Shown here: piece by piece, positions 1-15,496 of the stretch
Layout of the letters: every line of letters starts with the position of its first letter
Position numbering within the stretch: the first letter of the stretch is position 1
From: a virus
DNA: 64,000 nucleotides
IMG/VR virus record: IMGVR_UViG_3300034073_002585
Location: 64,001-128,000 of that record
Strand: one strand, 5' to 3'
Notes under the pieces: generated by a model
Database searches by the model: none
Seen by the model: the letters and a program-made list of their open reading frames with translations, nothing else
What the model was told of the DNA's origin: nothing
Position numbers and translations under genes: made by a program

Positions 1-263
1 TTCGTATGTTGGTCGTGGTGTCGGACGGAAACTACACGCCGAGCCAGACGGACAGAGCCAAGCAGATTCTCGCAGAGTGCCGACAGAGTGGCGTGGCGGT
101 TCTATGGATTACACCGAGAGGTTGCTACTCGTATGGTGCGAAAGACATTCTCGGAAGTTCGGCGTGGGGAGTTCACTTGGACGACCTAGACACCGCCGAG
201 ATTGCGAGGCTTGTCGGCAAGTCGGCGAGCGAAGCGTTAGCAAAGGTTGGTTCGCAGATGTAG
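1..263 (+). CDS. VWA-domain protein, C-terminal part (5' truncated by window)
   Basis: LVVVSDG motif followed by helix and GVAVLWI strand, typical of a vWA C-terminal half; the frame is open to the window edge. Confidence 0.6.
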   Translation, partial: RMLVVVSDGNYTPSQTDRAKQILAECRQSGVAVLWITPRGCYSYGAKDILGSSAWGVHLDDLDTAEIARLVGKSASEALAKVGSQM

Positions 264-354
264 TCGAGCCACAACGGATTGCCTAACCGAGAGGTTGAGC
301 GAAAGGTGATTACCCCCCTTTATCACTACTAGTTCCCAAACGGATAGGTAATAG

Positions 355-410
355 AAGCCCCCACAGCCAAGTGCTTCCCCCAGTCTTGGTTCGTGGGGGT
401 TTCGTCTTTT
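355..410 (+). terminator. Intrinsic terminator with C-rich loop
   Basis: GCCCCCAC..AGCCAAG / CTTGGTT..GTGGGGGT stem followed by T-rich tail. Confidence 0.7.
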
Positions 411-552
411 GACCCAGACCATTTTTTGACTGAAGGTGTGTATTTATTTTTTGTTACGACTTTTGAAAAAAGACTTGTTTTGTTTGCGAAACCTAGTAGG
501 ATTGGAGTATCCAATCAGGGACGAAATAGAAGTAGTCCCAAAAAGGGGAGAG

Positions 553-891
553 ATGACGAAAGTCACCAAAGCCCAGCCAGTCGGCTCAAAGACTGACACG
601 AAGGTAACTCGTAAGTTCGTTACCAAACTCAACGAGTTCGTTGAGGTTCGTTCTCTACAAAACCTCTACAAGAAGTTGGCTGACGAGGGTCGTGCCGAAA
701 TCTTCAACGAGGTGGGGGAAGCCGAGCAGGTGCTAATCCACAATGGCGTTCGGGTTGCGATTATCAGTAAGGTAACCAAGCCCGACATTGACAAGAAACT
801 TCTCGCCGAGAAGTATCCAGAGGCTTTTGCCGCTTGCTCAATCACTCGTGACGAGTTCCACATCAAGACAGCAACTCCGACCAAGAGATAA
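553..891 (+). CDS. Hypothetical protein, paralog of 8109-8474
   Basis: SD AAAAGGGGAG before ATG 553; IDKKLLAEKYPEAFAAC resembles IDEEKLAKDFPEAYEAC of the paralog. Confidence 0.8.
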   Translation: MTKVTKAQPVGSKTDTKVTRKFVTKLNEFVEVRSLQNLYKKLADEGRAEIFNEVGEAEQVLIHNGVRVAIISKVTKPDIDKKLLAEKYPEAFAACSITRDEFHIKTATPTKR

Positions 892-895
892 CCAG

Positions 896-928
896 AGAGG
901 GGGTTGGGCGAAAGCCCAGCCCCTTTTC
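896..928 (+). terminator. Intrinsic terminator
   Basis: GGGGTTGGGC-GAAA-GCCCAGCCCC-TTTT. Confidence 0.8.
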
Positions 929-1040
929 TCAAAATGCCGTTGTATTTATTTTTTGTATGACTTTTGACTCGCCGAGGCGTGCCGTAGAAAATGTCAGAGG
1001 TTAGTAGTAAATTGGTAGTAACAAGAAAGGGGGTTCTCAA

Positions 1041-1382
1041 ATGAGAGAGCCAGTAGCACTAGACCCAGTAGGCGTGGCAGGACTTAGCCTCACCATGATT
1101 GGAGTTCTCGTTGAGCAGTATGTAAGAGAGGGTTACGCCGACCCAACCATGTATCGGGCATTGAAAGGGGCAGGCGAACTAGCGGAACACCTACGGGAGT
1201 GGGTTATGTCAGAAGCACCAGACGAAACGGAACTGCTTGACGGCGTGACCGACTTACTTATGAACCTAGAACTTACCGCTATGGAGTGTGGCGAGGTCGT
1301 AAACCGAATCATTGACGAACACGGCTTGCCTGTTGATAAAAAGTCGTGGACACGGCTTGACATTGACGGCACGCAGGACTAA
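1041..1382 (+). CDS. Hypothetical protein
   Basis: 113-aa ORF with SD AAAGGGGG. Confidence 0.8.
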   Translation: MREPVALDPVGVAGLSLTMIGVLVEQYVREGYADPTMYRALKGAGELAEHLREWVMSEAPDETELLDGVTDLLMNLELTAMECGEVVNRIIDEHGLPVDKKSWTRLDIDGTQD

Positions 1383-1392
1383 GGTGGTAGGT

Positions 1393-1686
1393 ATGAAGTT
1401 CTATCAAGCACTCGGCGAGGTAATCAGAGAGCAACGGCTTGCCAAAGAGATGACCCTTCGTGATGTAGCCCAGACGGGTTATGTTTCTATGGGACACCTG
1501 TCAGATGTGGAGTGTGGACGGAAAGAGGGTTCTTCCCAGTTCATTCACGCAGTTGCTAACGGCATAGGCATAGAGCCTCACGAACTAATTTTGAAGGCAG
1601 GTTTCAGAATGGCAGACCTGACCATTCCAGATACACCAGAAAAACTTTTATTGGGCGATTCGCAATTCGAGACAGCCAGACTCTAG
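1393..1686 (+). CDS. XRE-family HTH regulator, ClgR-like
   Basis: ALGEVIREQR..TLRDVA...VSMGHLSDVECGRKEGSS follows the actinobacterial ClgR pattern (TLREVS..VSLGYLSEVERGRKEASS). Confidence 0.8.
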   Translation: MKFYQALGEVIREQRLAKEMTLRDVAQTGYVSMGHLSDVECGRKEGSSQFIHAVANGIGIEPHELILKAGFRMADLTIPDTPEKLLLGDSQFETARL

Positions 1687-1702
1687 AAGTCTGAAACCCA
1701 AA

Positions 1703-1733
1703 GACCCTAGCGAGTGGAAACGCTAGGGTTTTT
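1703..1733 (+). terminator. Intrinsic terminator
   Basis: ACCCTAGCG...CGCTAGGGT-TTTT. Confidence 0.8.
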
Positions 1734-1873
1734 GCATTTCCAAATTTTCTTGTTTGGCGTGTATTTATTTTTTGTTTGGCTTCCAATCGCTTTTGATGAA
1801 AATGTCTGCCAATCCTGATAGAGTTTTCTTGTTGGGAGTTCCAAGTGTGAACTACAACAGAAAGGGGTAGCAG

Positions 1874-2221
1874 ATGAGCAAGTCTGCTTTTTTGATTCGA
1901 GAGGATTTTTCTTTCGAGCGTTTGGAGTTAGAGGGCAACACCTTGAAGGTGTTACAGAGTGCCGTTGATGGCTTGATTCAACCTGTTGATTTGAGCGACA
2001 GCCTGACTGTCTGGGTAAATGAAGAGGGGCTATTCAGAAATGATTTTGATGTGAACCTTTTTGCTACTGCTATTTATCACCAAGCATTTCCGACTGCGGA
2101 TAACCCACTTGTAGGCCCTGCCGTCTTTACAGGTGGTTCTGATGATGAGGGCAACACCCTCGGATTGAGCGAGCAGATGATTGCCAACCTAGCGACATGG
2201 GCTCTGGCTCTCGCCAAGTAA
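1874..2221 (+). CDS. DUF3846-like protein
   Basis: LQSAVDGLIQPV..VWVNEEG..N..AT..LVGPAVFTG..DEG.T.GL pattern. Confidence 0.7.
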   Translation: MSKSAFLIREDFSFERLELEGNTLKVLQSAVDGLIQPVDLSDSLTVWVNEEGLFRNDFDVNLFATAIYHQAFPTADNPLVGPAVFTGGSDDEGNTLGLSEQMIANLATWALALAK

Positions 2222-2235
2222 CACAGAGGTAAGAC

Positions 2236-2266
2236 TGCCCCCGCTTCGGCGGGGGTTTTCTTTTTT
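2236..2266 (+). terminator. Intrinsic terminator
   Basis: GCCCCCGC-TTCG-GCGGGGGT-TTTCTTTTTT. Confidence 0.85.
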
Positions 2267-2389
2267 CCGTTTTTTGTGCGGGTAGCGTGTATTTATTTTT
2301 TGTATGAAGTTTTTATGAAATGCCGACAATAAACTTGATAATGTCAGAGTGCCGTGCTTTACTAGAGGTATCCAAGAAAAGGAGAGGGA

Positions 2390-2632
2390 ATGTTCAGTAA
2401 CTATCCAGAGGGTTCAATGCGAGGCTCGGGTATCTATTCGGTTGAGGTGTCTTATGACGCTTTCGATTGCGAGAACGAGGAGTGCGGACAGCACAACGAG
2501 GCTGGCGATACTGCGACTGATGACTGGGGACACTACACGATTGAGTGCGAGTTCTGCGGAGTGACCTACACAGAGAGCAGTCTGGCACAGGACAAAGATG
2601 ATTACTACGCCGACTATTCCGAGGACAGGTAG
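2390..2632 (+). CDS. Acidic Zn-ribbon-like hypothetical protein
   Basis: SD AAGGAGAGG; CENEEC...CEFC. Confidence 0.75.
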   Translation: MFSNYPEGSMRGSGIYSVEVSYDAFDCENEECGQHNEAGDTATDDWGHYTIECEFCGVTYTESSLAQDKDDYYADYSEDR

Positions 2633-2640
2633 GGGCTAAA

Positions 2641-2781
2641 ATGGCAACGCAATACGAATACGAATGTCGCTCTTGTGGAAGTGCGGTTTGGCTAGACCAA
2701 GAACAGCACGACCACTACGAGAGCAACAAAGAAAAGGGAAGCGGGTTCACAATGCCAAAGTGCGCCGACTGCTGGAAATAG
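2641..2781 (+). CDS. 46-aa Zn-ribbon protein (not in ORF track)
   Basis: MATQYEYECRSCG...PKCADCWK*; SD AGGTAGGGG upstream; fills the gap between neighbours. Confidence 0.7.
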   Translation: MATQYEYECRSCGSAVWLDQEQHDHYESNKEKGSGFTMPKCADCWK

Positions 2782-2792
2782 GGAGAGGAAAA

Positions 2793-2993
2793 ATGACAAC
2801 AACGACCCGCTACTGCTGGAACTGCGAGGAAGAACTAAACGCCGAGAACACAGGTTCTTATGGTGGGTTCGATTCAAGCAACCACTACTATTCAAGTATC
2901 TATGGCGGAGATGGCGACACAGCGCCGTTCACAAAGTGCGACTCTTGTTTTGATGCCGACAACGACAGATATCTAGAGAGCCTTTACGAGTAG
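2793..2993 (+). CDS. 66-aa Zn-ribbon protein
   Basis: SD GGGAGAGGA; CWNC...CDSC. Confidence 0.7.
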   Translation: MTTTTRYCWNCEEELNAENTGSYGGFDSSNHYYSSIYGGDGDTAPFTKCDSCFDADNDRYLESLYE

Positions 2994-3137
2994 GCAATAC
3001 CAAAGATTTACTGCCCAATAATTCTGTGCGGGACACAGAGTTGGGCAGTTTTTTATTGCCGATTTTTGGCGACTATTTTTTGTTCTTCGAGTGTATTTAT
3101 TTTTTGTTCCAGGCTGCCGAAACTTTTTACTAATGAT

Positions 3138-3166
3138 TTGACTTCGCCGACCAAACCTAGTATCTT
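3138..3166 (+). promoter_or_regulatory. sigmaA-type promoter
   Basis: TTGACT-17 bp-TATCTT, about 30 bp after the box at 3092. Confidence 0.6.
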
Positions 3167-3206
3167 TGTAAGTGTCAGAAAGACACAGAGTGAAAGGAAT
3201 CCAGAA

Positions 3207-3476
3207 ATGGAAACGACAAAAGAAGTAATCAAGGCTAGACTCATGGAGATTGAGGAGCGCCAAAAAGAACTGGCACAGAGTCGCCGAGAGATGGCACTAG
3301 ACATGGCTGTTGAAGTTGGGACAGACGAGCTAGTTGGTATCAACCTTGACTCACTATCAAAGTGGGCAAGAAGAATTAGGAAAGTCAATACAGAGATGAA
3401 AGTTTTGGCAGACGAGCGCCGTTGGTTGAGAGAGAGCAGACGCCGACTCAACCCTTGCGAGTGCGACTGCCACTAA
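3207..3476 (+). CDS. Coiled-coil hypothetical protein
   Basis: SD GAAAGGA, ATG 3207; heptad-like charged sequence. Confidence 0.75.
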   Translation: METTKEVIKARLMEIEERQKELAQSRREMALDMAVEVGTDELVGINLDSLSKWARRIRKVNTEMKVLADERRWLRESRRRLNPCECDCH

Positions 3477-3490
3477 GGTTAGTCCCCCCT

Positions 3491-3534
3491 AACCCCCGCC
3501 CCCGTCAGAGAAATCTGGCGGGGGTTTTCTTTTT
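3491..3534 (+). terminator. Intrinsic terminator
   Basis: CCCCCGTCAGA-GAAA-TCTGGCGGGGG-TTTTCTTTTT. Confidence 0.85.
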
Positions 3535-3672
3535 GTCGTTCGTTGAATTTTTCATTGAGAGCTGTACAAAAAATAAATACAAGTAGGTAGCACAATAATT
3601 TTTGCTGCCGTGTTTCTTTTGTTTTTCTTCTTTTTACTGCTATACTTGATGTAATCAAGAAAGGGGGACACA

Positions 3673-3972
3673 ATGTCCACAAGCACCACCACCGCCCGCA
3701 ACGAGTTTCTTTCCGCCGTATGCGAGCCACTACGCACCATCACTAGCGAGAACCTCACCAAGAGCGCATGGGTAGCTGGAGTTGAAATCATTGCTCTGGC
3801 AAATCGCCTTGCCGACCTTGAGGTTTCCGTAGAGCTTCTAGAGAACGAAATCAAGCTAGGCAACCTCCACTTCGCCGTTGATGGTCACAACTGGAGCGAC
3901 TACGCAAAGGTTTACAACAACAACTTTGTGGAACTGTGCCAGTTGCTACGAGCAAGAAGGCTTGCTAAGTAG
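3673..3972 (+). CDS. Hypothetical protein
   Basis: SD AAAGGGGG; extended -10 TGCTATACT upstream. Confidence 0.75.
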   Translation: MSTSTTTARNEFLSAVCEPLRTITSENLTKSAWVAGVEIIALANRLADLEVSVELLENEIKLGNLHFAVDGHNWSDYAKVYNNNFVELCQLLRARRLAK

Positions 3973-3987
3973 TATCCAAAACACCAA

Positions 3988-4017
3988 GCCCCCTGTTTCG
4001 GCAGGGGGTTTCTTTTT
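3988..4017 (+). terminator. Intrinsic terminator
   Basis: GCCCCCTG-TTTCGG-CAGGGGGT-TTCTTTT. Confidence 0.8.
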
Positions 4018-4151
4018 GCCGTGACGAGAAAGTCTCCCTCTTTCTGTGTGTATTTATTTTTTGTCCAGGACTTCAACATGCCGACAACTTTTTGTCAAAA
4101 TGTCTCTTATGGGTGCTATGCTCTAAGTAACCAAAGAAAGGGGACAACCAA

Positions 4152-4328
4152 ATGGTTGGAGTAGGGCAGCTACTAAGTAGCTTGAATTTGAATGTGATTG
4201 CGAGCGCCGTAGAAGGCGAGACAACAGTTCCTTGGACTCTTTTGTTAGAAGATGAGGAATTCCTAAAGATAGCAAAATACGCCAACACCTTACAAGAGGT
4301 TGTTGACTGGGTAAACGAGAACTACTAG
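4152..4328 (+). CDS. 58-aa hypothetical protein (not in ORF track)
   Basis: SD AAAGGGGA then MVGVGQLLSSL...DWVNENY*. Confidence 0.7.
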   Translation: MVGVGQLLSSLNLNVIASAVEGETTVPWTLLLEDEEFLKIAKYANTLQEVVDWVNENY

Positions 4329-4335
4329 GGGGTGA

Positions 4336-4539
4336 ATGATGAGCGTAAAGTATCCAGAGATTGAAGTTCAACTTTCGGGAAATGATGGAAATGCTTATGC
4401 GATTATGGGGGCGATACAGAAAGCCCTACGCCGAGCAGAGGTTCCACAACACGAAATTGAGCAATACCTAAACCAATCCATGAGCGGAGACTATGACAAC
4501 CTTTTGCGGGTTGCCATGAATTGGGTGACAGTTCACTAA
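4336..4539 (+). CDS. Conserved small phage protein (GNAYAIMG...SGDYDNLL family)
   Basis: L.G.DGNA..I.G....AL...SGDYD.LL motif familiar from phage/plasmid small proteins; function unknown. Confidence 0.75.
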   Translation: MMSVKYPEIEVQLSGNDGNAYAIMGAIQKALRRAEVPQHEIEQYLNQSMSGDYDNLLRVAMNWVTVH

Positions 4540-4552
4540 TCAAACCAAAGAC

Positions 4553-4586
4553 AAACCCTCGCAAAGTTGCGGGGGTTTTTCTTTTT
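4553..4586 (+). terminator. Intrinsic terminator
   Basis: AAACCCTCGCAA..TTGCGGGGGTTT-TTCTTTTT. Confidence 0.8.
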
Positions 4587-4704
4587 CCCGTGATAATTTC
4601 GGCGCTCGCCGTATGTATTTATTTTTTGTCTAGCTCATCAGCAACAGATTTGCGGTTTATGTGTGTGCCGTGTTAGGGTATGAGTATCAAGAAAGGAGTT
4701 CCCT

Positions 4705-5091
4705 ATGGGAGCAAGAACAGTTTGGGAGATTCGGACTTATTCCGACAGGCCCTCTATTTATCTATACAGCCACTGGGGTGGCGACACTAAGTGGATTGAC
4801 ACAGTTCAAGCCTTAGAGCAAGCTAGATTCCGCTGGGATGACCCGAGTTATGGAGCAAGGATTTTCATTAGCCAGATTGTTGGAAGCCAATGGGACCTAG
4901 AAACAGGATTCGGTATCACTGCTGGAGATTCTGGAGAAGTTCCATTCGAGGAGAGCTATTTCAATGCGGTAATAGATTTCTCATCAAAGACAGTGACCCT
5001 AGGAGAGCACCTATACACTTTCGAGGAGTTTGTGTCCGCCGATGACATTACTGAACAGCTTGGCAATGAGTTCTGGGAGGTTAGCGCCTAA
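4705..5091 (+). CDS. Hypothetical protein (IYLYSHWGG motif)
   Basis: SD AAGGAG; MGxR...YxHWxG N-terminal motif. Confidence 0.75.
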   Translation: MGARTVWEIRTYSDRPSIYLYSHWGGDTKWIDTVQALEQARFRWDDPSYGARIFISQIVGSQWDLETGFGITAGDSGEVPFEESYFNAVIDFSSKTVTLGEHLYTFEEFVSADDITEQLGNEFWEVSA

Positions 5092-5375
5092 TGGGTAATC
5101 TACAAGCTCAAGAAATGGCGGCGCTCACTGACCTTGACATAGCGCTAACTTGGCACCTGCGGTCGAACCACTATCCACCCGTGCCGTTGACAATGCTTGA
5201 ACCATGTAAACAAGCGATTGACGCTTACTGGGAAGATGACCTAGATAGGCAGATTGACTTGAATGGAAGTTTCTACAGGGGCGAACCTTTTGCCCCTGCT
5301 AGAGAGATTATTATCGCTCATCACCTAGACGCTTGGTGTGAGGGCGAGGAAGAGGAGTTCGACGATGCCGATTAA
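5091..5375 (+). CDS. Hypothetical protein (WHLRSNHYPPVP motif)
   Basis: Translationally coupled (TAATG) 94-aa ORF. Confidence 0.75.
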   Translation: MGNLQAQEMAALTDLDIALTWHLRSNHYPPVPLTMLEPCKQAIDAYWEDDLDRQIDLNGSFYRGEPFAPAREIIIAHHLDAWCEGEEEEFDDAD

Positions 5376-5763
5376 GGATAAGGAGAAATACAATGCTTAC
5401 ATGCGGGAATACAACAACAGAACCTATGCCCTTAGGTGTGACAAGTTCCGAGCCCAATTAGGCAACAAGTGCACAAAGTGCGAGAGCACAGATAGCCTAA
5501 ATTTCAGTGGCACCACCCCGCTAGGTAAGTCTTTTGATTTGTCGCGCCGAATGACTAGTGCACCAATGAAAGACTTGCAAGAGCTTTTTGACAACAGCAA
5601 CTACACGCTATTGTGCAACAAGTGCCTAGCAAAGCAAACCAAAGGCGTAGAGCATGGAGGAGGTATTTCTGGCGTGCGGAATTGTAAGTGCGATTTGTGT
5701 AAAGCTAAGAAAGCCGAATACATGCGGAGCTACATGAAGAAGAAACGAGCTACAATAGACTAG
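5365..5763 (+). CDS. HNH-like Zn-binding protein, probably catalytically degenerate
   Basis: LGNKCTKC...LLCNKC...HG..SG..NCKCDLC layout of actinophage HNH proteins. Confidence 0.65.
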   Translation: MPIKDKEKYNAYMREYNNRTYALRCDKFRAQLGNKCTKCESTDSLNFSGTTPLGKSFDLSRRMTSAPMKDLQELFDNSNYTLLCNKCLAKQTKGVEHGGGISGVRNCKCDLCKAKKAEYMRSYMKKKRATID

Positions 5764-5786
5764 CCAAAGCAATGTCGCTTGGCTAT

Positions 5787-5870
5787 TGCTAGAGATTTTG
5801 TCCCCCCTTTCTCTCTAGCATGCGGGTTACAACTTTCCCCCCTTTAGTTGTAACCCGCTTTTTCTTTTTT
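5787..5870 (+). ncRNA. 6C-RNA-like tandem hairpins with C6 loops; the second hairpin doubles as terminator
   Basis: TGCTAGAGA[TTTTGTCCCCCCTTTC]TCTCTAGCA then GCGGGTTACAACT[TTCCCCCCTTT]AGTTGTAACCCGC + T tract. Confidence 0.5.
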
Positions 5871-5944
5871 GTCGCCTGCTTTTTCTCTTCCGTTGAGTGT
5901 ATTTATTTTTTGTTCAACTTTAGCCACGCCGTCAAATAAAGTGC

Positions 5945-5972
5945 TTGACTAATTTGACAGGACTGGTAGGCT
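5945..5972 (+). promoter_or_regulatory. sigmaA-type promoter
   Basis: TTGACT-16 bp-TAGGCT; the following TATTACATCAGCCAA is shared with the promoter at 7422. Confidence 0.65.
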
Positions 5973-6014
5973 TATTACATCAGCCAAAAGGTTGGTAAAA
6001 GGAAAGGGGACAAA

Positions 6015-6230
6015 ATGTTCACACTAAGAAGGTTCGCAGGTGCAGTAATCACCATGCCAATCGTGTTCGGTATCTATGCGGTTATCTACTTTGGTCTAGG
6101 TCTAGTAGCAAACAGCTACATGAGTATTGGACTATTCACCCAAAACCTATACGCCGTTGGATTCGGCTGGGTGATTGCGGTTACATTCGCTAAGCAGTTC
6201 TTCAACCTAATCGAAAAGCTAGGAGAGTAA
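6015..6230 (+). CDS. Small membrane protein (2 TM)
   Basis: Two hydrophobic segments; SD AAAGGGGA. Confidence 0.75.
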   Translation: MFTLRRFAGAVITMPIVFGIYAVIYFGLGLVANSYMSIGLFTQNLYAVGFGWVIAVTFAKQFFNLIEKLGE

Positions 6231-6232
6231 TA

Positions 6233-6385
6233 ATGGAAAACATCATTGAAGCAGTGCTACTAATCGGAGTAGCGTTCATTCCAGTAGGAGCGTTCTTGCT
6301 AGGGTTCGTAGTCGCCAAGATTTCTAATGGTGGTGGTAACCCGAAGGGTCGTCACGCCAAAGGTCGTGGCAGACACGCCAAGTAA
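6233..6385 (+). CDS. 50-aa membrane protein with basic GRHAK-repeat tail (not in ORF track)
   Basis: SD AGGAG; MENIIEAVLLIGVAF...GRHAKGRGRHAK*. Confidence 0.7.
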   Translation: MENIIEAVLLIGVAFIPVGAFLLGFVVAKISNGGGNPKGRHAKGRGRHAK

Positions 6386-6394
6386 GTTCCACCG

Positions 6395-6430
6395 AAGCCC
6401 CTCGCAGAAATGTGGGGGGTTTCTTTTTTT
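6395..6430 (+). terminator. Intrinsic terminator
   Basis: AAGCCCCTCGCA-GAAA-TGTGGGGGGTTT-CTTTTTTT. Confidence 0.8.
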
Positions 6431-6566
6431 GCGGGCAGCCTCTTATTTTTTTGTTTTTAGGTTGTATTTATTTTTTGTCTAACTTCAGACACACCTGCCG
6501 ACTTGATTTGCGATTACGGGTAGGAGGCTCTAAGCTATTACTAAGAACAAACAGGGAGGGGCAGAA

Positions 6567-6815
6567 ATGCTAAACAGACCAGACCAAGAGGCAGAGCTAA
6601 TCTTCGCTATGGTGATGAAGCTAGGCGGAGAGCACAACTACTCAGAGCACACCAAGGCTACGATTTGGGCAGAGTGTAATCGTAACCCTAAGCTACGCAA
6701 CCTAGCGTTGCAGTATCTAGCTGGGTCAAGCAACAGGGCAGACCTAAACCTGCACCGACTACACACCGAAATTGTGGAAGTATTCTTCCCTGAAGTAAAG
6801 GAGTTGATTGGCTAA
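6567..6815 (+). CDS. Hypothetical protein
   Basis: SD GGGAGGGG; promoter TTGCGA-17-TAAGCT at 6508-6536. Confidence 0.75.
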   Translation: MLNRPDQEAELIFAMVMKLGGEHNYSEHTKATIWAECNRNPKLRNLALQYLAGSSNRADLNLHRLHTEIVEVFFPEVKELIG

Positions 6816-6961
6816 TGGCTATCACGATTACAGAACTTACGACTTGCTACCAATGCGAGCGACCAATTATGGCACCGAAAGATTCAGTTCACCCGCTATG
6901 CGAAATTTGTGACCAGGGTTTTGACGAGTGGTTCACTAAGCAGTTAGGTATGTTCAAGTGA
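6815..6961 (+). CDS. 48-aa Zn-ribbon protein (not in ORF track)
   Basis: Coupled TAATG start; CYQC...CEIC; ends in GTGA overlap with next gene. Confidence 0.7.
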   Translation: MAITITELTTCYQCERPIMAPKDSVHPLCEICDQGFDEWFTKQLGMFK

Positions 6962-7272
6962 TTGAGTTTGAGCAGAAGTATTCAACGCCGAGAGCACAAA
7001 GGCAGTATGAGCTTGAAACTCTAATCAAGCACTATGAAGTTGAGCGTGCCGAGAACATTAGGCGACTATTGTTTTCGATTGGAGTTGGTTTTGCTTATGT
7101 TCTACTTATGGGAGGAGTTATAGGTTATGGAACTTTTGCTGGAGGCTATGCCGTATTAGGTTGGCTGTCAGTAATTACAGTTGGGCTATTCATAGCTGGC
7201 GAGTTTGTGAAAGTCAATGCCGAGCTTAGTCGCCCAAACCTCAACCACCCAGAAAGATTTATACAGAGTTAG
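6958..7272 (+). CDS. Membrane protein (2 TM)
   Basis: Two hydrophobic helices. Confidence 0.7.
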   Translation: MIEFEQKYSTPRAQRQYELETLIKHYEVERAENIRRLLFSIGVGFAYVLLMGGVIGYGTFAGGYAVLGWLSVITVGLFIAGEFVKVNAELSRPNLNHPERFIQS

Positions 7273-7294
7273 TCCCCCCTAACACCCCCCCACG

Positions 7295-7338
7295 CCCCCG
7301 CTAGGTTTCTGAACCTTTCCTAGCGGGGGTTTTCTTTT
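7295..7338 (+). terminator. Intrinsic terminator
   Basis: GCCCCCGCTAGG...CCTAGCGGGGGT-TTTCTTTT. Confidence 0.85.
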
Positions 7339-7421
7339 ACCTCGAAAGCACCTCGAATTTTTTTGCGGGAGGGTGTATTTATTTTTTGTCTAGTTGTTGC
7401 CGACACGATTGGTAAAAGGAT

Positions 7422-7449
7422 TTGACAAATCTAAATAAGGTGCTAGGCT
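7422..7449 (+). promoter_or_regulatory. sigmaA-type promoter with extended -10
   Basis: TTGACA-16 bp (ending TGC)-TAGGCT. Confidence 0.7.
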
Positions 7450-7494
7450 TATTACATCAGCCAAGGTGGTTGATACAAAGAAAAGGGGTAAAAA

Positions 7495-7791
7495 GTGAAC
7501 AGCAGGACTTACGAGAACATTCAGGGGATTGGAAGCTGGGTAGCTTTCCTAGCTACTGGAGTGGCTTTCCCATTCAGCTTGGAGTATGCGGGATTGATTG
7601 ACGCAATGAGCGCAGACCTATACACCGAGGGTAGGGCGATGATGTTCCTAATCATTGTGGTCAGCATTTCAATTCTGGCAGTAACCCTAGCGGTCAAGGC
7701 TGGACTATCTTGGGCAGAATACAAGTGGTATTACCGCCAAGACCTAGCACAGAAGCTACACCGCCTAGCAGACAGGATTGCCAAGCGATGA
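7495..7791 (+). CDS. Membrane protein
   Basis: SD AAAAGGGG, GTG start, 2 hydrophobic segments. Confidence 0.7.
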   Translation: MNSRTYENIQGIGSWVAFLATGVAFPFSLEYAGLIDAMSADLYTEGRAMMFLIIVVSISILAVTLAVKAGLSWAEYKWYYRQDLAQKLHRLADRIAKR

Positions 7792-7898
7792 AGCAACTAG
7801 CCAAGAGGGTTGAACCCTTGGTGCTGGAAGTTCTGGCAGTTGTCGTCTTGCCGAGGATTGCTGGAGCAGTAGCCAAGAGGTTAGCCAAAACTAAATAA
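7788..7898 (+). CDS. 36-aa hypothetical peptide
   Basis: ATGA overlap with previous gene; ends just before terminator. Confidence 0.5.
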   Translation: MKQLAKRVEPLVLEVLAVVVLPRIAGAVAKRLAKTK

Positions 7899-7907
7899 GA
7901 AGTGAGG

Positions 7908-7939
7908 AAGCCCCCGCCAAGTGCGGGGGTTTTTCTTTT
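7908..7939 (+). terminator. Intrinsic terminator
   Basis: AAGCCCCCGC-CAAGT-GCGGGGGTTT-TTCTTTT. Confidence 0.8.
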
Positions 7940-8016
7940 GCTTGCCGTTGTGATTTTTGCTGTTGTTGGGTGTATTTATTTTTTGTTCAAACTTTCAACA
8001 CGATTTTGAAATAGAT

Positions 8017-8045
8017 TTGACAACTACTAATCCACCCCCTAGACT
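8017..8045 (+). promoter_or_regulatory. sigmaA-type promoter
   Basis: TTGACA-17 bp-TAGACT. Confidence 0.75.
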
Positions 8046-8108
8046 GATTACATCAGTTCAGAAGTAGAGCTGATAACCGAAACTAGATAACTACAAAGGG
8101 GAGACGAA

Positions 8109-8474
8109 ATGTCCACAATTACTAAAGCAGTAGCAAAGGCTGAGCAGGCACAGGTTGCCGAAGGCAAAGCCACCAAGCGAATCGTAGATGCGGTCAAGGA
8201 GCTAGTAGAGCTTAGGGCTGAAATCGCAGAGCTTGAGAAGCGTAAGAACTCACTTACCGCAGAGCTAGAGCAGGTGTTCGGTGTAGACAAAGAAGCCAAG
8301 ACTTCAAAGCACACCACACTTACCTACCACGGTGTAGATGTTGTTCGCTACGAATGGCGCAAGCGTAAAGGGATTGACGAGGAGAAACTAGCCAAGGACT
8401 TCCCAGAAGCTTACGAAGCTTGCTACAAGGCAGACAAGACCGTATACGGCTTGATAGTGTCACTGTTCAAGTAA
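8109..8474 (+). CDS. Hypothetical coiled-coil protein, paralog of 553-891
   Basis: SD AAAGGGGAG; shared C-terminal IDxxxLAxxxPEAxxAC. Confidence 0.8.
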   Translation: MSTITKAVAKAEQAQVAEGKATKRIVDAVKELVELRAEIAELEKRKNSLTAELEQVFGVDKEAKTSKHTTLTYHGVDVVRYEWRKRKGIDEEKLAKDFPEAYEACYKADKTVYGLIVSLFK

Positions 8475-8481
8475 ACCGAAA

Positions 8482-8513
8482 GACCCCTAGTCAGAAATGG
8501 CTAGGGGTTTTTT
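8482..8513 (+). terminator. Intrinsic terminator
   Basis: ACCCCTAGTCA-GAAA-TGGCTAGGGGT-TTTTT. Confidence 0.85.
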
Positions 8514-9243
8514 CATTTCTGGCACAGTGCCGTAGTTAGTTAGAGGCTATACAAAAAATAAATACAGGTATGCCGTTCGAGTATTCTGCCGTGATTGCTC
8601 ATTGAGTCAGGTGAAGTTGTTATGCCGTAGATGGTTATACCCCCATAGCCCTAACCATTGAGGGGGGTGTAGCTGTCCCCTACAAGCCTTAGAGCCCGTA
8701 GCAGACCCACTCCCCAGACATAAGTAGGGCAAAGTCTCTAACCCACCACCTAAGTCTGTCTGCCGTAAAGCTGATAAATGCCCCTAAGAAGTCATAGAAG
8801 CTCTTTAAAGGGCATTGGCACTCTTATCTATGTCCCAGACAGGTAAAAGCTTTCTAGGAGCAACCTAGACCCTTATAGCTACAACTTATGAACTCACTCT
8901 TATTCGATGTCATAGCTAGACCTTGACTAGAAGCATTAGCTAGTTGTCTAGGCACTCTTTGACAGGTTTTTTCAATACCCCCTAGACAAGACAAGGAGTT
9001 TGTCACGACATTCTTGGCAGGCATACCCCCTAGGGTATGGAAACAATCTGGAAGGCACCATTTCACAACCGCTGCCCTCTCACCCGCCAAAAGCAGTCAA
9101 CGCTAAGGTACTAAATCTTCCGCTACGGACACCCCCTCTTTTTTGAAAAACTACCCCACCCCCCTTTCTAAAATGCCCTAAAAATTTCCAAAAATTTTTT
9201 AAAAAAATAAACGCCCCTATTTTTACCCCTTAAAATAGAATCC

Positions 9244-9741
9244 ATGTCTCGAAGAACAGCACGTGGACAACAGCTTCCTCCTCACGAGGTCGAGCTCTTG
9301 AACACACTAAAAGGCGAGCAGCGCATTGAGCGCGTAGCGGCGTTATTTAACGCGGGATGGTCACTTCAGACCATTGGGGATTCACTACTGCCAAAGCACC
9401 CACGCTCCACTGTACGCTCTTGGGTTCTTCGAGCTAGCGGGCTCAACACACTAGACGCCCCTATTCCAACACCAAAATTAAAAACACCAGAAGGCGGATA
9501 CCAAAAGGTAAAACCCGAGTCTCCAGGAATCCCGCAAGGCGACCTTGAGCAAATCCGCTACCTGGCTCCTCTGGCGAGAACGTACCGTTCACGTATGTCC
9601 TCAACGTCAGCATACGCCGTTGCCAACCAGCGTCTAACCGACCTGTGCAAGCGGCTCCATGAAAATAATGTCTCAGTGCGTGAACTGGCTGAGGCTGCGG
9701 GCGTAACATACCGAGCTATGTACAAGAGGCTCTTCCTCTAG
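9244..9741 (+). CDS. Double HTH DNA-binding protein
   Basis: AGWSLQTIG..RSTVRSW and VSVRELAEAAGVTYRAMYKRL; probably leaderless (TAAAAT 7 nt upstream of ATG). Confidence 0.75.
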   Translation: MSRRTARGQQLPPHEVELLNTLKGEQRIERVAALFNAGWSLQTIGDSLLPKHPRSTVRSWVLRASGLNTLDAPIPTPKLKTPEGGYQKVKPESPGIPQGDLEQIRYLAPLARTYRSRMSSTSAYAVANQRLTDLCKRLHENNVSVRELAEAAGVTYRAMYKRLFL

Positions 9742-9753
9742 CTCCCCGTCAAC

Positions 9754-9783
9754 TTGACAAGTAATAGACGCCCCTATTACCAT
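9754..9783 (+). promoter_or_regulatory. sigmaA-type promoter
   Basis: TTGACA-18 bp-TACCAT upstream of the NlpC/P60 gene. Confidence 0.55.
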
Positions 9784-9834
9784 ACCCTCAACAACTAAAT
9801 AAGACCAAGTACTAACGCAAGGAAAGGTAGGTCG

Positions 9835-10515
9835 ATGTTAGCCAACACCAAACACCAAAAAGATAGGATGGTTTTCTCCATCCTCTCGACGCTGCTATTC
9901 ATAACGGCGTCCAGCGCAATCTATACAACCCCATCCGCCAACGCCGTTCAAGAAAAGGCATTGGAGGCAAAACTAATAACGTACACGGTTCCTGCTCCGC
10001 CAGAGAATCTATTCAACACAATCTCCACGCTTGACAGGTTTACAAACAAAATCTCTGAGCTGGAAGAAACGATTCAACAAAGAGAATCAACTATTTACAT
10101 CGTAAAAACCCGTGCCGAGCAAGACCTTGAGGCACTACGGAACACTTACGTTTCCATGGACCAAGCCCTCATCGAGCTGTCCAGTTACGTAGGCGAAACC
10201 CCCTACGGCTTCGGAGACACCCCCGCACGCTGGGACTGCTCTGGCCTAACTCTCTGGTTCTACCAGACTTACCGAGGCATAACCCTCCCACACTCCGCTA
10301 CAGCTCAAAAGCTTGGCGGTACTGAAGTAGGCGCACCTATTCCAGGTGATTTAGTTGCCTTTAGCTACGGTAACCGTTCTGAGGCGTTCCATATCGGCGT
10401 CTACGTTGGCTCAGGTATGTTTATTCACGCAAAGAACCCAAATGCTGATACAGTGCTAGAAACTTTGGATTCTTTTGTAAAAAATAATATTACAGTTGCA
10501 TATATCCGCTACTAG
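9835..10515 (+). CDS. Secreted NlpC/P60 cell-wall peptidase
   Basis: N-terminal hydrophobic signal, coiled coil, GETPYGFG..WDCSGLT..PGDLVAF..HIGVYVGSGMFIHA. Confidence 0.9.
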   Translation: MLANTKHQKDRMVFSILSTLLFITASSAIYTTPSANAVQEKALEAKLITYTVPAPPENLFNTISTLDRFTNKISELEETIQQRESTIYIVKTRAEQDLEALRNTYVSMDQALIELSSYVGETPYGFGDTPARWDCSGLTLWFYQTYRGITLPHSATAQKLGGTEVGAPIPGDLVAFSYGNRSEAFHIGVYVGSGMFIHAKNPNADTVLETLDSFVKNNITVAYIRY

Positions 10516-10530
10516 TGCTATGCTAGGAGC

Positions 10531-10725
10531 ATGAATTACGAAAAACTAGTTCCGCTCCTAGCAATGGTGGCTATTACGATTATTATTGCTGCACCAGCAA
10601 TGAAGAGAATCGTTAGCAACATCCTAGAAGCCAGACGTATCCGCCGACACAAGAAAAACCTTCCTGGTCCACTCCTTGGTGTCGTATACCCTCCCCACAA
10701 GACAACCGACAAAGAGACAGACTAA
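10531..10725 (+). CDS. Small membrane protein
   Basis: One TM then basic tail. Confidence 0.65.
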   Translation: MNYEKLVPLLAMVAITIIIAAPAMKRIVSNILEARRIRRHKKNLPGPLLGVVYPPHKTTDKETD

Positions 10726-10727
10726 CC

Positions 10728-10895
10728 ATGAAGCTATACCTGTTTTTACGTTCCATCATTTGGACCGCCGTTTTTTCAGTACTAGCCGCCGTTCTGACAT
10801 TAATATCGGCGTTTACCGCACCAACCCTAGCTATCCCGCTAGGACTAATCTCCGTTTCCCTAGCAATTCTTTCTCCTAGAAGGAGCGACTACTAA
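10728..10895 (+). CDS. 55-aa 2-TM membrane protein (not in ORF track)
   Basis: MKLYLFLRSIIWTAVF...ILSPRRSDY*. Confidence 0.6.
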   Translation: MKLYLFLRSIIWTAVFSVLAAVLTLISAFTAPTLAIPLGLISVSLAILSPRRSDY

Positions 10896-11065
10896 TGTTC
10901 GAGCCTTCCTCTGAAGCAATTATTTGGATTCTAGGTATTATTACAACTTTTCTAGCCGTTATTGTTTTGGTTACGGTTATTGCAGTAATATTTACCTTCA
11001 CGGGACCGCCACACGACATTCATGACGTAGAAATTGACGGAACCCCTAAGAAAAGAGATAAATGA
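10895..11065 (+). CDS. 56-aa 1-TM membrane protein (not in ORF track)
   Basis: SD AAGGAG, TAATG coupling; MFEPSSEAIIWILGII... Confidence 0.6.
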   Translation: MFEPSSEAIIWILGIITTFLAVIVLVTVIAVIFTFTGPPHDIHDVEIDGTPKKRDK

Positions 11066-11346
11066 AAATGGCCTACACAAAGATAATTTCTGTAAGCACC
11101 TATGACGACTTTAGAGAAATGCTGCCAAGTAGTGGCGTCTTTGATATGACTGACTGCTCCATACAGATTTGGTGCCCGCAGGAGTCAGACACTAAAGAAG
11201 TGGAACGAATGGTTCATTTAGTTGAATCAATGGTTCACGTAACCGATGTTCAAATAGGTTCAAGGATAGAAGATATGGCTGAAGATAAGTACAGCGTAGT
11301 TATCACTGAAATTCAGAACAATATCCGAAATAAATACTTGAGCTAG
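11062..11346 (+). CDS. Hypothetical protein
   Basis: 94-aa ORF coupled to upstream gene. Confidence 0.65.
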   Translation: MKMAYTKIISVSTYDDFREMLPSSGVFDMTDCSIQIWCPQESDTKEVERMVHLVESMVHVTDVQIGSRIEDMAEDKYSVVITEIQNNIRNKYLS

Positions 11347-11361
11347 AGAGTAGGAAAATAA

Positions 11362-11940
11362 ATGACAACCGACGATAAGAAATACATCAAGAAGAATCAG
11401 CAGCTTCCTACAGAGATAAAGCTCGAGTTTGACAAACTCTCTGGGAATAATGCCATGAGAGATATCCTGATTAAGAATCTAGTTGACGCTAACTGGACTT
11501 ACGAGGCAATCTCAAATGCGAGTGGACTCACTAGAGAGCGAGTTCGTCAGATTGCAAATGCTGTAGAGCGTCTGGCAGACGAGTTTCAGTATGACTTAAA
11601 TATTGAAATTCCAGAGCCGCCAGTTAAGCCTGAAAGGCCTAAAGCGCAGTACGTGGAGCCAAGTCCAGAGACTCTCAAGCGCCTACTGGAACTTCAGCCT
11701 TACGCTCAGCTAGTTAGAGCAAATGGACAGAAGTATCGCAAAGAGGCAGAAGAATACACCGCTCTGCTTAACCACGCTCACACGGTTGAGGGAGTTACCC
11801 TCTACCGACTAGCTAAGCGTCTAGGAGTTACCCACGGTGCTCTACGCTTCAGACTTGTACGTTACGGTTACAAGAAACCAGTTACTGCAACCAGTAAGGT
11901 CTACCAACCAATCATCAAAGACAACAGAGTGACGAACTAA
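11362..11940 (+). CDS. Double HTH DNA-binding protein, paralog of 9244-9741
   Basis: NWTYEAISNASGLTRERVRQI (sigma region-4-like HTH) and VTLYRLAKRLGVTHGALRFRL. Confidence 0.8.
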   Translation: MTTDDKKYIKKNQQLPTEIKLEFDKLSGNNAMRDILIKNLVDANWTYEAISNASGLTRERVRQIANAVERLADEFQYDLNIEIPEPPVKPERPKAQYVEPSPETLKRLLELQPYAQLVRANGQKYRKEAEEYTALLNHAHTVEGVTLYRLAKRLGVTHGALRFRLVRYGYKKPVTATSKVYQPIIKDNRVTN

Positions 11941-11942
11941 CA

Positions 11943-12170
11943 ATGCAAACAATTGAAGAGCTATATCACAAGGACATTCATCAGGAAAGATTTGCTATGC
12001 TTGTTGCTGCAAGGGTAAACGAAATCCTGTCTGGAACTGCCGCTGTTTTGGAATTTCCAAAGGCTGGTGGCGTGTTTAACACTCCAGAGGAAGAAGTCCT
12101 ACTATTCGCAGATGTAATCGCAAGAGTAGTCTGCGCAAACCTAAACCAAGGAGAGGAAATCGTTGAGTAA
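11943..12170 (+). CDS. Hypothetical protein
   Basis: 75-aa ORF between HTH gene and katG. Confidence 0.6.
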
Positions 12171-14352
12171 CTACGACGTAAACGACAGCTCTGCTGCCAA
12201 GTGCCCAGTTCCGCATGGAACTGCAGGAGGAGCGTCCGCAGAGATGGGAACAACTAACAATGACTGGTGGCCAAACCAGATTAGTGTTGACCCGCTACTA
12301 AAGGGTAACCCAAAGAGTGACCCGTACGAAGATGACTTCGACTACGTTGAGGAGTTTAACTCCCTGAACTTAGACGAGCTTAAGGCAGACATTGTTGCCT
12401 GCATGAAGGACAGCCAGCCTTGGTGGCCAGCAGATTACGGACACTATGGTCCGCTATTCATTCGCATGGCTTGGCACTCAGCTGGAACCTACCGCGTAAG
12501 CGACGGCCGTGGCGGTGGAGGCGAAGGTCTACAGCGTTTCGCTCCGCTTAACAGCTGGCCAGACAACGTAAACCTAGATAAGGCTCGCCGTCTACTATGG
12601 CCAGTCAAGAAGAAGTACGGCCGCAAGATTAGCTGGGCTGACCTAATGATTCTCGCTGGTAACGTTGCTCTTGAGGACATGGGCTTCCCAACCTTCGGGT
12701 TTGCTGGTGGACGTGCAGACGTCTGGGAGCCAGACAACACTTACTGGGGCAACGAGACCGAGTGGCTAGCCAACAAGCGTTACGAGCCAGGCCGCGAAGC
12801 TGACTCTCTAGAGGACCCGCTAGCTGCTGTACAGATGGGTCTTATCTACGTAAACCCAGAGGGTCCAGATGGCAACCCAGACTTCAAGCTGGCTGCTGCT
12901 GACATTCGCACCACCTTTGCCCGCATGGCCATGAACGACGAGGAGACTGTTGCTCTGATTGCTGGTGGTCACGCCTTCGGTAAGACTCACGGTGCTGGAC
13001 CTGCAGACCAGGTTGGCCCAGAGCCAGAGGCTAACGACAAGCTAGAATCTGTTGGCCTTGGCTGGGAGAACTCTCAGGGCACTGGACATGGCGCTGACAC
13101 AATCTCCTCTGGTCTAGAGGTTACCTGGACTCCTAACCCGACCCGCTGGGACAACGACTACCTACGCCTCATCTACAAGTACGAGTGGGAGCTAGAAGAG
13201 TCTCCTGCTGGTGCAAAACAGTGGCGTCCAGTAAATGACGAAGTATATCCAGAGGACGTGGCTCCACACGCCCACAACGAGGGTGAAATCGTCATCCCTC
13301 GCATGCTGACTACTGACCTTGCTCTCCGCTTCGGAGACGAGGAGTACGACCGCATCAGCCGTAAGTTCCTAGAGGACTTCGACTACTTCACTGACGTCTT
13401 CGCTCGTGCGTGGTTCAAGTTGACCCACCGCGACATGGGACCACGTGCACGCTACCACGGTCCAGAGGTTCCTCAGGAAGTTCTACTGTGGCAGGACCCA
13501 GTTCCATCTAGCGTTGCTCCAACTGTTCTACAGAAGCAAATGACTCGCATCAAGCTAGACGAGGCTGGTCTAACAATTCCAGCACTTGTTCGAGCTGCAT
13601 GGGCGGCTGCATCAACCTACCGCAACACTGACAAGCGCGGTGGAGCGAACGGTGCACGCATCGCTCTAGAGCCACAGCGTAGCTGGCCAATTAACGCTCA
13701 GGTTAATGGCATTATCGACGAGCTAAAGAAGATTCAGCCAGAGTCTGGCATGTCTCTTGCTGACATCATCGTGTTTGCTGGTGGCGACGCAATTGAGCGT
13801 GCTGCAAAGAACGCTGGAGTTCCAGTTGTGGTTGACTTCCTTGGAGGTCGCGGTGACGCAACTCAGGAGCAGACTGACGTTGAGTCCTTCAACCACTTGT
13901 ACCCAGTTGCAGATGCATTTGTTAACTGGAGCCACAAGAAGTATGCAGACTCGCTAGACCGTCTACTAATCGACAAGGCAACCCTTCTAGGGCTGACCCC
14001 TCCAGAGATGGTTGCTCTGTATGGTGGACTACGCGCACTAGGTGTTTCAACCAACGACCACGGCGTACTTACAGACCGTAAGGGCGTCCTCTCTAATGAC
14101 TTCTTTGTCAACATTCTTGACATGGACATCGAGTGGAACCCAGTACTAGATAACCTGTATCAGGGACGCGACCGCAGGACTCAGGAAGTCAAGTGGGTTG
14201 CATCTCGTGCAGACCTAGTATTTGCATCTAACTCAATTCTCCGTGCTTACTCAGAGGTTTACGCTTCTGACGACGGCCTAGAGAAGTTCGTGACTGACTT
14301 TGTCTCTGCATGGACCAAGGTCATGAACAACGACAGGTTCGATGTAAGATAG
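12163..14352 (+). CDS. katG: Catalase-peroxidase
   Basis: [88 protein letters not shown]. Confidence 0.98.
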
Positions 14353-14531
14353 ATTTAGAGGCACGAACGGCTATCGCTATTGCAGTGACAGGTCGTAACT
14401 CTCTAAAAGGCAAACCGCCAACTAACTCGTGCGGGTAGCCTAAGAGGCGCGGGCTTTGGATTGGGAATTCCCGATTGGGCCCGCGTCTTTTCTATTATGT
14501 TAAAATATTTACCCAACCAGTAAGGAGAACC

Positions 14532-15128: not shown

Positions 15129-15148
15129 ATCTGTGTTACTATATTTCC

Positions 15149-15369
15149 AACAGCAATCCGACGGGAGAGCTGGAGTATGGCGGAACACCTCCAAAGCCAA
15201 ATGGGGGGGGCAACGCACAGGTGGCTCTTAGCAGAGTGGTTAGCGACCGAACATCTGGTCTGTCCAAAATGGGTACTACAGAACCGCATTGGCTTGACAG
15301 TGGTAGTAAAAGCAACCCTACCTACTCACCATAACACCCTCGTAGAGATACGGGGGTGTTATACTTTTT
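15149..15369 (+). ncRNA. Candidate structured non-coding RNA
   Basis: Extended -10 (TGTTACTAT) upstream, long-range AAGCCAA.TG/CATTGGCTT pairing, terminator ATAACACCCTCGTA-GAGA-TACGGGGGTGTTAT + T tract. Confidence 0.35.
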
Positions 15370-15400
15370 ACAACCCCGCCAGCCTTAAGGGGTTGGCCCT

Positions 15401-15472
15401 TCCTCTCTAGCTCAATGGCAGAGCAACGAGCTGTTAACTCGTCGGTTCGTGGTTCGAATCCACGGAGGGGAG
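15401..15472 (+). tRNA. tRNA-Asn (GTT)
   Basis: Acceptor TCCTCTC/GAGGGGA, D arm GCTCAATGGCAGAGC, anticodon arm ACGAG-CTGTTAA-CTCGT, T arm CGTGG-TTCGAAT-CCACG; CCA not encoded. Confidence 0.95.
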
Positions 15473-15496
15473 CAATACAGGTAGAATAGAACTCCT

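Follow-up and report, generated by a model that had tools for sequence, protein, structure and literature searches.

In a 64,000-nucleotide stretch of phage DNA (the window; bases 64,001–128,000 of the 154,192-bp IMG/VR record IMGVR_UViG_3300034073_002585, labelled G000), the first nine kilobases belong to a cassette-built domain in which the short word YGCCGW accumulates on the + strand and restriction-type palindromes are strongly depleted. Here we show that the density of YGCCGW on the + strand (WCGGCR on the − strand), with its core GCCG and its copies in one orientation, is a signal under positive selection. As to what it does, we favour, with a probability of about one in three, a reading in which the domain would be first-entering, pre-early DNA defended in cis and YGCCGW would be a Chi-like polar signal.

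The G000 assembly is circular-like, its record ends overlapping by 124 bp, and the motif-rich region is followed downstream by terminase, portal, capsid and tape-measure genes. The portal protein shares 70% identity with its counterpart in DSL-LC01, an uncultured lake phage, and 57–62% with those of 186–194-kb Microbacterium phages; for Microbacterium phage Pumpernickel (NC_073468; L014/L015), identity is 62% for the portal and 67% for a RecA-like protein. From the portal identities, G000 appears to be a large siphovirus-type phage of freshwater actinobacteria, with 45% G+C.

A one-strand word in a palindrome-purged domain

Exact counting gave 54 copies of YGCCGW on the + strand and 10 on the − strand at positions 1–8,800 of the window, and 10 on the + strand at positions 8,801–17,800, the very numbers that an initial annotation had estimated by hand (about 54, 10 and 10). 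Base composition predicts about 1.5 copies per 2 kb and strand, as against the 9–18 per 2 kb observed; the overall density is 1 per 190 nt. The initial annotation had also described the excess as confined to the cassette region. Its borders do match those of the cassette array, but the zone is not limited to the window: genome-wide, the excess is restricted to about 58–73 kb of G000 and begins 4.75 kb to the left of the window. Over the whole domain (Table 1), the strand ratio is 68:13 (+:−).

Between 58 and 74 kb of the genome, 72 of the 77 GCCG on the + strand lie within a YGCCGW. All four variants of the word are raised (11–25 copies each), with only 3 RGCCGN and 2 YGCCGS, and the 12 positions on each side carry no information. 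On the + strand, GCCG is 3.0 times as frequent in the zone as in the rest of the genome, and CGGC 1.0 times. When k-mers of the zone were compared with those of the rest of the genome in an unbiased way, TGCCG, GCCGA, CGCCG and all four YGCCGW 6-mers came near the top, together with terminator words, the ribosome-binding site AAAGGGG and words of a 16-nt box that marks the cassettes. This box, TGTATTTATTTTTTGT, occurs in 14 exact forward copies and 2 inverted copies at 59,300–72,566 of the genome. Every forward box has a strong terminator (11–13 bp) before it and a sigma-70-like promoter after it, and 8 of the 14 have a YGCCGW 20–31 nt downstream.

Three features thus have common borders: the cassette array, the YGCCGW excess and the loss of restriction-type palindromes. 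Compared with expectations from the rest of the genome, the domain holds very few ACGT (0 observed/35 expected), ATAT (1/60), TTAA (2/63), GTAC (2/41), GGCC (2/38), CGCG (1/15), TGCA (8/66) and TATA (13/54). The observed/expected ratio (O/E) in the domain is 0.32 for 4-mer and 0.13 for 6-mer palindromes, against 0.79–0.80 outside; other 5–6-mers are depleted too, among them GCWGC, CAGCTG and GATGC-type words, and CTAG is never avoided. The left border is abrupt: the dense palindromes stop at 59,222 of the genome, and the box first occurs at 59,300. The purge is graded and strongest at this left edge, the left, middle and right thirds of the domain retaining 2, 6 and 21 sites in G000. Separately, GATC (0 copies, roughly 570 expected) and CCGG (1 copy, roughly 395 expected) are avoided throughout the 154-kb genome, and other palindromes are not.

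The domain closes with a long untranslated stretch, in which the initial annotation had noted five clustered copies at 8528–8767. These are five TGCCGT, starting at 8528, 8571, 8587, 8623 and 8761 and ending at 8766, and they surround an inverted box. The left, motif-bearing part of this stretch is not conserved. In its right part (window 9060–9240; L012 3300–3460), blocks are kept between G000 and its relative G001, namely ACCGCT.CC.TCTCACCCG.CAAAA.CAGT and an A/T-rich TAAAAA...AAAAAAATA, directly upstream of a helix-turn-helix (HTH) gene.

With genes called by a model of coding potential and Shine–Dalgarno (SD) sequences, 34 of the 54 window copies are coding and 20 non-coding, non-coding DNA making up 32% of the sequence. 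The coding copies fall 22 times in the frame xxY GCC GWx (Ala, then Asp, Glu or Val) and 6 times in each other frame, and copies between a terminator and the next promoter box include those at genome positions 64935, 67057, 68017, 68607 and 71943, which bears out the earlier report of copies in different frames and in terminator-to-promoter spacers. The word is at least as dense in non-coding as in coding DNA (about 6 per kb, a 9-fold excess). TGCCG prevails among these non-coding copies, and their strand ratio is 24:6 in G000 (p = 0.0014) and 25:4 in G001 (p = 0.0001). Spacing between copies is indistinguishable from random placement, and the copies keep no set distance from starts, SD sequences or 3' ends. 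Regular spacing of the word was ruled out by this Poisson-like distribution, and a spread of copies by cassette duplication was rejected because the flanks hold no information.

The enrichment was then compared with shuffled sequences. A synonymous-codon shuffle that retains every protein and the codon usage of the zone gave 9.9 ± 2.7 coding copies in the window, as against 34 observed (z about 9), with the − strand at expectation. For intergenic DNA, a dinucleotide-preserving shuffle gave 2.3 ± 1.5 copies, as against 24. In stricter versions of both shuffles, each 4-mer palindrome was capped at its observed number. This raised the coding expectation from 15.9 to 27.5 ± 4.0, still below the 46 copies observed (z 4.7), and the non-coding expectation was 2.7 ± 1.8 for the 24 observed. 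Over the plain shuffles, the + strand excess is thus 3-fold in coding and 9-fold in non-coding DNA; the strictest null leaves a coding excess of about 1.7-fold. Counts on the − strand match expectation in every data set, whether the DNA is coding or not. Persistence against a null preserving codons and composition had been set beforehand as the test of the initial annotation, and the enrichment does persist, although the strictest null absorbs about 60% of the coding copies. The shuffles rule out a codon-usage artefact. For non-coding DNA, where the strict null explains almost none of the copies and the signal is cleanest, they also rule out a by-product of palindrome avoidance, which is strand-symmetric and therefore cannot yield an excess on one strand.

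Codon usage in the domain (coding sequences at 58,000–72,800 of the genome) differs from that of the late genes. The codon GCC stands at 0.29, against 0.15 elsewhere; GCC, GCG, CGA and CCG are all roughly doubled, and the T-ending four-fold codons (GCT, CCT, TCT, ACT and CGT) roughly halved. The Y...W rule for the flanks of the core follows in part from the purge of GGCC, CCGG and GCNGC, because a G before GCCG creates GGCC and a G or C after it creates CCGG or GCNGC. G001 differs in that an A before the core is tolerated.

Relatives, genome position and gene content of the domain

Six IMG/VR contigs encode the domain's VWA protein (51–87% identity), and the purge is present in all six of these relatives; the contrast in palindrome O/E between inside and outside was measured in five. 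In G001 (a 129.6-kb contig, 65% protein identity), 73 YGCCGW lie on the + strand at 102–120 kb, with 2 in the preceding 17 kb and 1 in the following 9 kb, and this span coincides with the cassette box of G001, GTATCCACTTT, and with the palindrome purge of that phage. Both strict nulls gave the same result as in G000 (coding, 47 observed and 20.4 ± 4.2 expected, z 6.3; non-coding, 25 and 4.0 ± 1.8; − strand at expectation). The surviving palindromes number 21, 34 and 46 in the left, middle and right thirds, and the right border is laid out alike, with 3–4 (T)GCCG(W) past the last cassette. Four further distinct relatives showed a weaker excess of 2.6–3.4-fold on the + strand and about 1-fold on the −, with the same abrupt onset of the purge. 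The search for the motif in relatives that the initial annotation had proposed was therefore positive.

Many cassette proteins are kept among the relatives in a reshuffled order. Only 5 of 23 aligned coding sites are common to G000 and G001, and some YGCCGW sites are made by amino-acid replacements, such as Lys to Ala between these two phages. Across this clade of freshwater actinophages, the number and orientation of the motif are conserved and its position is not. Each lineage has its own invariant box (TAGTTATTTT in L006; GTATCCACTTT in L007, L008 and L011; the G000-type TATTTATT in L010), so that the box evolves in concert within a genome, although the proteins are 51–87% identical.

In every relative, the rare copies on the opposite strand cluster at the 3' end of the VWA gene and in the two conserved genes that follow it (window 159–227 and 1240–1564; G001 107241–107519; L006 8794–9220; L007 11460–11714; L011 11547–11801; L010 11484–11825). 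Some of them sit at conserved Ser-Ala or Val-Gly-Lys codons. Either a constraint on the protein or a conserved patch in which the polarity is reversed would account for them.

We found that Pumpernickel carries an exact 19,963-bp direct terminal repeat (genes 1–52 = genes 302–353), which the database record gives without a repeat feature. The repeat consists entirely of small + strand genes, starts near the endolysin gene and lies upstream of the terminase and portal genes. In G000, an endolysin-like gene lies 2 kb to the left of the domain and a sigma-r4/HTH gene 2.4 kb to the right; they are homologues of Pumpernickel genes 5 and 49, both inside the repeat, although synteny at the repeat is only partial. 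In two relatives, the contig ends 0.7–2.6 kb before the endolysin gene is reached from upstream. If a long terminal repeat were collapsed, the assembly would be a circle, and in the reading favoured below the G000 domain would probably be such a repeat; the evidence is suggestive and falls short of proof.

The domain's AAA_5 ATPase gene lies directly upstream of the VWA gene, and both are kept in all relatives. The HNH gene is probably a recent mobile insertion into the purged zone, because it has a low coding score and holds four TGCA. A PHROG scan of 20 domain proteins mostly gave no assignment, the exceptions being an HNH endonuclease, an HTH repressor-like protein and two RecE-like matches, both weak. 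The latter are two small proteins (window 553–891 and 8109–8474), probably paralogues, that weakly match the C-terminal part of PHROG 434 'RecE-like recombination exonuclease' (E 3.5e-5 and 1.8e-6); that of 8109–8474 is encoded by the last gene of the domain and is kept in all relatives. The same scan of 20 proteins gave no recognisable nuclease inhibitor and listed no A1/A2-type family, the T5 proteins themselves not having been compared. Between the domain and the terminase gene (window 12163–15128), a full-length catalase-peroxidase gene, katG (Pfam E 1.7e-66), adjoins a haem oxygenase gene (E 2.8e-37). KatG identity was only 55–61% among the 80 genome matches listed, which span many phyla, and the haem oxygenase had no match among 401 sampled genomes.

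Table 1. Location of the domain and its features (window coordinates unless marked otherwise)
Feature	Position	Strand	Remarks
Special domain	genome 59,250–73,000 (13.8 kb); window part 1..9000	+	YGCCGW-rich, palindrome-purged, cassette-built
YGCCGW	37..8766	+	54 copies, core GCCG; other strand reads WCGGCR; Poisson-like spacing, flanks uninformative
Minus-strand YGCCGW patch	159..1564	−	7 of the 13 minus copies of the domain: 159, 214, 222, 1240, 1366, 1412, 1559
Box TGTATTTATTTTTTGT, 11 of 14 forward copies	439..7986	+	starts at 439, 941, 1760, 2288, 3092, 4049, 4614, 5898, 6463, 7374, 7971
Box TGTATTTATTTTTTGT, inverted copy	3566..3581	−	exact match
Box TGTATTTATTTTTTGT, second inverted copy	8551..8566	−	exact; amid five TGCCGT at the right border
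VWA (CoxE-like) gene, 617 aa, 3' end	1..263	+	in domain, kept in all relatives
HNH endonuclease gene	5365..5763	+	low coding score; carries 4 of the domain's 8 TGCA
Untranslated right border stretch, 770 nt	8475..9243		closes the domain; dense palindromes resume at 9108
First gene past the domain, HTH-like, 165 aa	9244..9741	+	palindromes at normal density, motif at background

What may read the word

In the reading that we favour, the domain would be the leading, pre-early part of the chromosome, lying naked in the cell before any phage protein exists and hence defended in cis: restriction sites would have been removed and a Chi-like word accumulated. An end-entering helicase-nuclease, either of the host RecBCD/AdnAB type or the phage's own, would read the word on one strand and be switched from degradation to a recombination-promoting mode. 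As a result, the leading DNA would be spared and the joining of the two terminal repeats possibly aided. Depending on the strand that is read, the polarity would be compatible with either end; were the left edge to enter first, as the purge gradient may indicate, the word on the 3'-ended strand would be 5'-WCGGCR-3'.

Several observations agree with this. The word is short and asymmetric, it is over-represented beyond composition and codon usage, and the strong co-orientation of its copies suggests a factor that travels along one strand or reads it. Random spacing, turnover of sites and an excess over strict nulls in two phages are the behaviour of a density signal such as Chi. The initial annotation had proposed a polar DNA-level signal on the segment that may enter the cell first. 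This proposal is supported in part: the signal proved to be one-stranded, free of a codon artefact and dense in non-coding DNA, whereas an enzyme that reads the motif and first entry of the segment are putative. The proposal is nevertheless the best available reading, further backed by the palindrome-free domain, and the segment is special in being co-extensive with the purged zone and syntenic with the 20-kb terminal repeat region of Pumpernickel.

A number of points weigh against it. YGCCGW is a 4-base core with degenerate flanks, and known Chi words are G-rich 5–8-mers. About 60% of the coding copies are explained by codon usage and palindrome avoidance, and many non-coding copies lie 20–31 nt past a promoter box, as would also suit a regulatory site. 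The minus-strand copies are uneven, with 6–7 in the last 300–400 nt of the VWA gene in five relatives and 3 in G000. Neither the word bias nor the purge was found in the cultured relative Pumpernickel, in DSL-LC01 or in T5. At 113.8–119.6 kb of its genome, G000 also encodes a helicase, with a 312-aa protein next to it, a RuvC-like resolvase and a RecA-like protein that shares 67% identity with gp109 of Pumpernickel. Finally, all genes of all six domains are on the + strand, so that an explanation linked to transcription or RNA predicts the same polarity; a natural experiment was sought in the form of an inverted gene, but no credible minus-strand gene was present in any of the six domains.

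Such an explanation, which we consider possible though doubtful, would have the word act in pre-early transcripts or on the non-template strand of the transcription bubble. It might be the site of an RNA-binding protein, the target of a sequence-specific RNase that times early mRNA decay (for which RegB and GGAG in T4 are a precedent), or an element at which RNA polymerase pauses or termination is prevented. In its favour, all genes of the domain are co-oriented and the word always lies on their sense strand, it is confined to a cassette array with its own promoters and terminators, and read-through from upstream cassettes could bring the spacers into RNA. However, density peaks in non-coding DNA, including the stretches between terminator and box and the 770-nt end region, which favours DNA over RNA. 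Positions are random with respect to gene landmarks, and no Rfam family matched, one twister-P1 match being below threshold.

The coding and non-coding copies might instead have two unrelated causes, which we regard as rather unlikely. The non-coding copies would be promoter-near sites of a cassette regulator, and the coding excess would result from codon usage (GCC doubled, NNT codons halved) together with the purge of GGCC, CCGG, TGCA, CGCG and GCNGC. In agreement with this, codon usage is shifted, the palindrome-capped null lifts the coding expectation as described above, a copy follows more than half of the boxes at a short distance, and TGCCG dominates the non-coding copies. On the other hand, a coding excess remains under that null in both phages, amino-acid changes create sites, and non-coding copies, at distances that vary, are also present in the end region and upstream of boxes. 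The same word is carried by relatives that have other boxes, and its origin from two independent causes would be a coincidence.

Even less probable, in our view, is that the word gives a DNA motor its direction, in the manner of KOPS or SRS (the guide sequences of FtsK and SpoIIIE). It would orient a host or phage translocase that draws in the remaining genome once the leading domain is inside, a transfer in two steps such as that of T5. This would suit copies that are dense, share one orientation and are limited to the putative leading domain, and a pair of AAA_5 ATPase and VWA protein is conserved inside it. In T5, second-step transfer depends on pre-early proteins through a mechanism that is unexplained (PMC10644984; bioRxiv 10.1101/866236). 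Against this, known guide words are G-rich 8-mers, MoxR-type AAA_5 proteins are not known to be DNA pumps, nothing ties the motif to the ATPase or speaks for entry in two steps here, and no translocase of the FtsK/SpoIIIE type was identified in the domain.

Evasion of orientation-dependent restriction, in which Type III and Type ISP systems cut only between inversely oriented sites, would suit a short asymmetric word in a domain otherwise heavily restriction-proofed, and the EcoP15I sites of T7 do lie in a single orientation, but this is highly improbable and contradicted by the counts, since the total is raised, the + orientation is enriched 3–9-fold and not merely kept, the − orientation is at chance (13 copies) and not purged like ACGT or GGCC, and head-to-head pairs remain. 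The initial annotation had also mentioned decoy sites for a restriction–modification (R-M) or BREX enzyme. This is unlikely, because nothing in a decoy calls for a strand bias, and the minority orientation does not show the purge to be expected of a restriction site.

Returning to the Chi-like signal, its most specific form can be put forward only tentatively, and we would sooner doubt it than rely on it. WCGGCR/YGCCGW would be the Chi-type word of a freshwater actinobacterial end-processing helicase-nuclease (AdnAB or RecBCD), written by a phage clade about once per 190 nt on one strand of a restriction-site-free leading domain, as a cis-encoded counter-defence that acts before the first phage protein. 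If true, this would be the first candidate Chi-like word for Actinobacteria, for which we know of no Chi. It would also be a clear case of a phage guarding part of its chromosome by sequence design alone and the remainder through trans-acting functions, and leading DNA could be recognised in uncultured phages from sequence, by sharp purge borders and a one-strand word. Even without the mechanism, a domain-limited purge that brings 6-mer palindromes to 0.13 of expectation, far beyond that measured in the terminal repeat of T5, predicts that in abundant freshwater phage–host pairs the genome is exposed to the nucleases of the host in two phases.

Comparison with known systems

The nearest parallel is with phages that rely on host RecBCD and are rich in Chi. 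In LLS, 20 of 23 Chi sites share one orientation (20:3), and in MD8 all 32 do (32:0); these sites are clustered toward one end, turn over between relatives and are not caused by codon usage, and P1 requires RecBCD for recombining its terminal repeats (Zheng et al, 2025; PMC12315714). G000 is like LLS, MD8 and P1 in having a short, asymmetric, over-represented word in one orientation and one part of the genome, with turnover of sites. The role proposed for Chi in those phages is to tame an end-entering helicase-nuclease and to promote recombination, including that of terminal repeats. Unlike them, G000 uses a word that is not a known Chi, at a density about 10 times higher and confined to a palindrome-free domain. 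A further difference, which counts against a Chi-like role, is that the Chi-rich phages described have no Rec module (PMC12315714), whereas G000 has a RecA-like module of its own. The likeness to Chi is one of sequence, and an enzyme that reads the word is putative.

The first-step-transfer repeat of T5 and BF23 resembles the domain in its small genes with their own promoters, its large untranslated closing region and an HNH insertion; the G000 domain likewise has small genes with promoters and terminators of their own, a large untranslated end and a local lack of restriction sites. In T5, host nucleases meet the repeat before phage protection is in place. Within T5-type genomes, the terminal repeats are what R-M can attack, and their route of escape from the degradation of host DNA is unexplained (PMC10644984); T5-like phages resist R-M only for sites outside the terminal repeat (PMC10644984; bioRxiv 10.1101/866236). 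The T5 repeat differs from the domain in having no general palindrome purge (4-mer O/E 0.99, against 0.92 outside) and no comparable one-strand word, and its A1 and A2 genes read toward the end, whereas the domain genes all read one way. The likeness of the domain to T5 is one of gene layout and base sequence, and its status as a repeat, its ends and two-step entry are putative.

The repeat of Pumpernickel, a related phage, is like the domain in being a long series of small + strand genes that starts near the endolysin gene and precedes terminase and portal. It is unlike the domain in its motif counts (46:51) and palindrome O/E (0.90), and it takes in the endolysin and HTH genes, which lie outside the domain here. 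KOPS and SRS share with YGCCGW that they are co-oriented and frequent, and it is a translocating enzyme that reads them; as 8-mers they occur throughout a genome with a change of skew at dif, whereas YGCCGW is a 4–6-mer in a single 14–18-kb phage domain.

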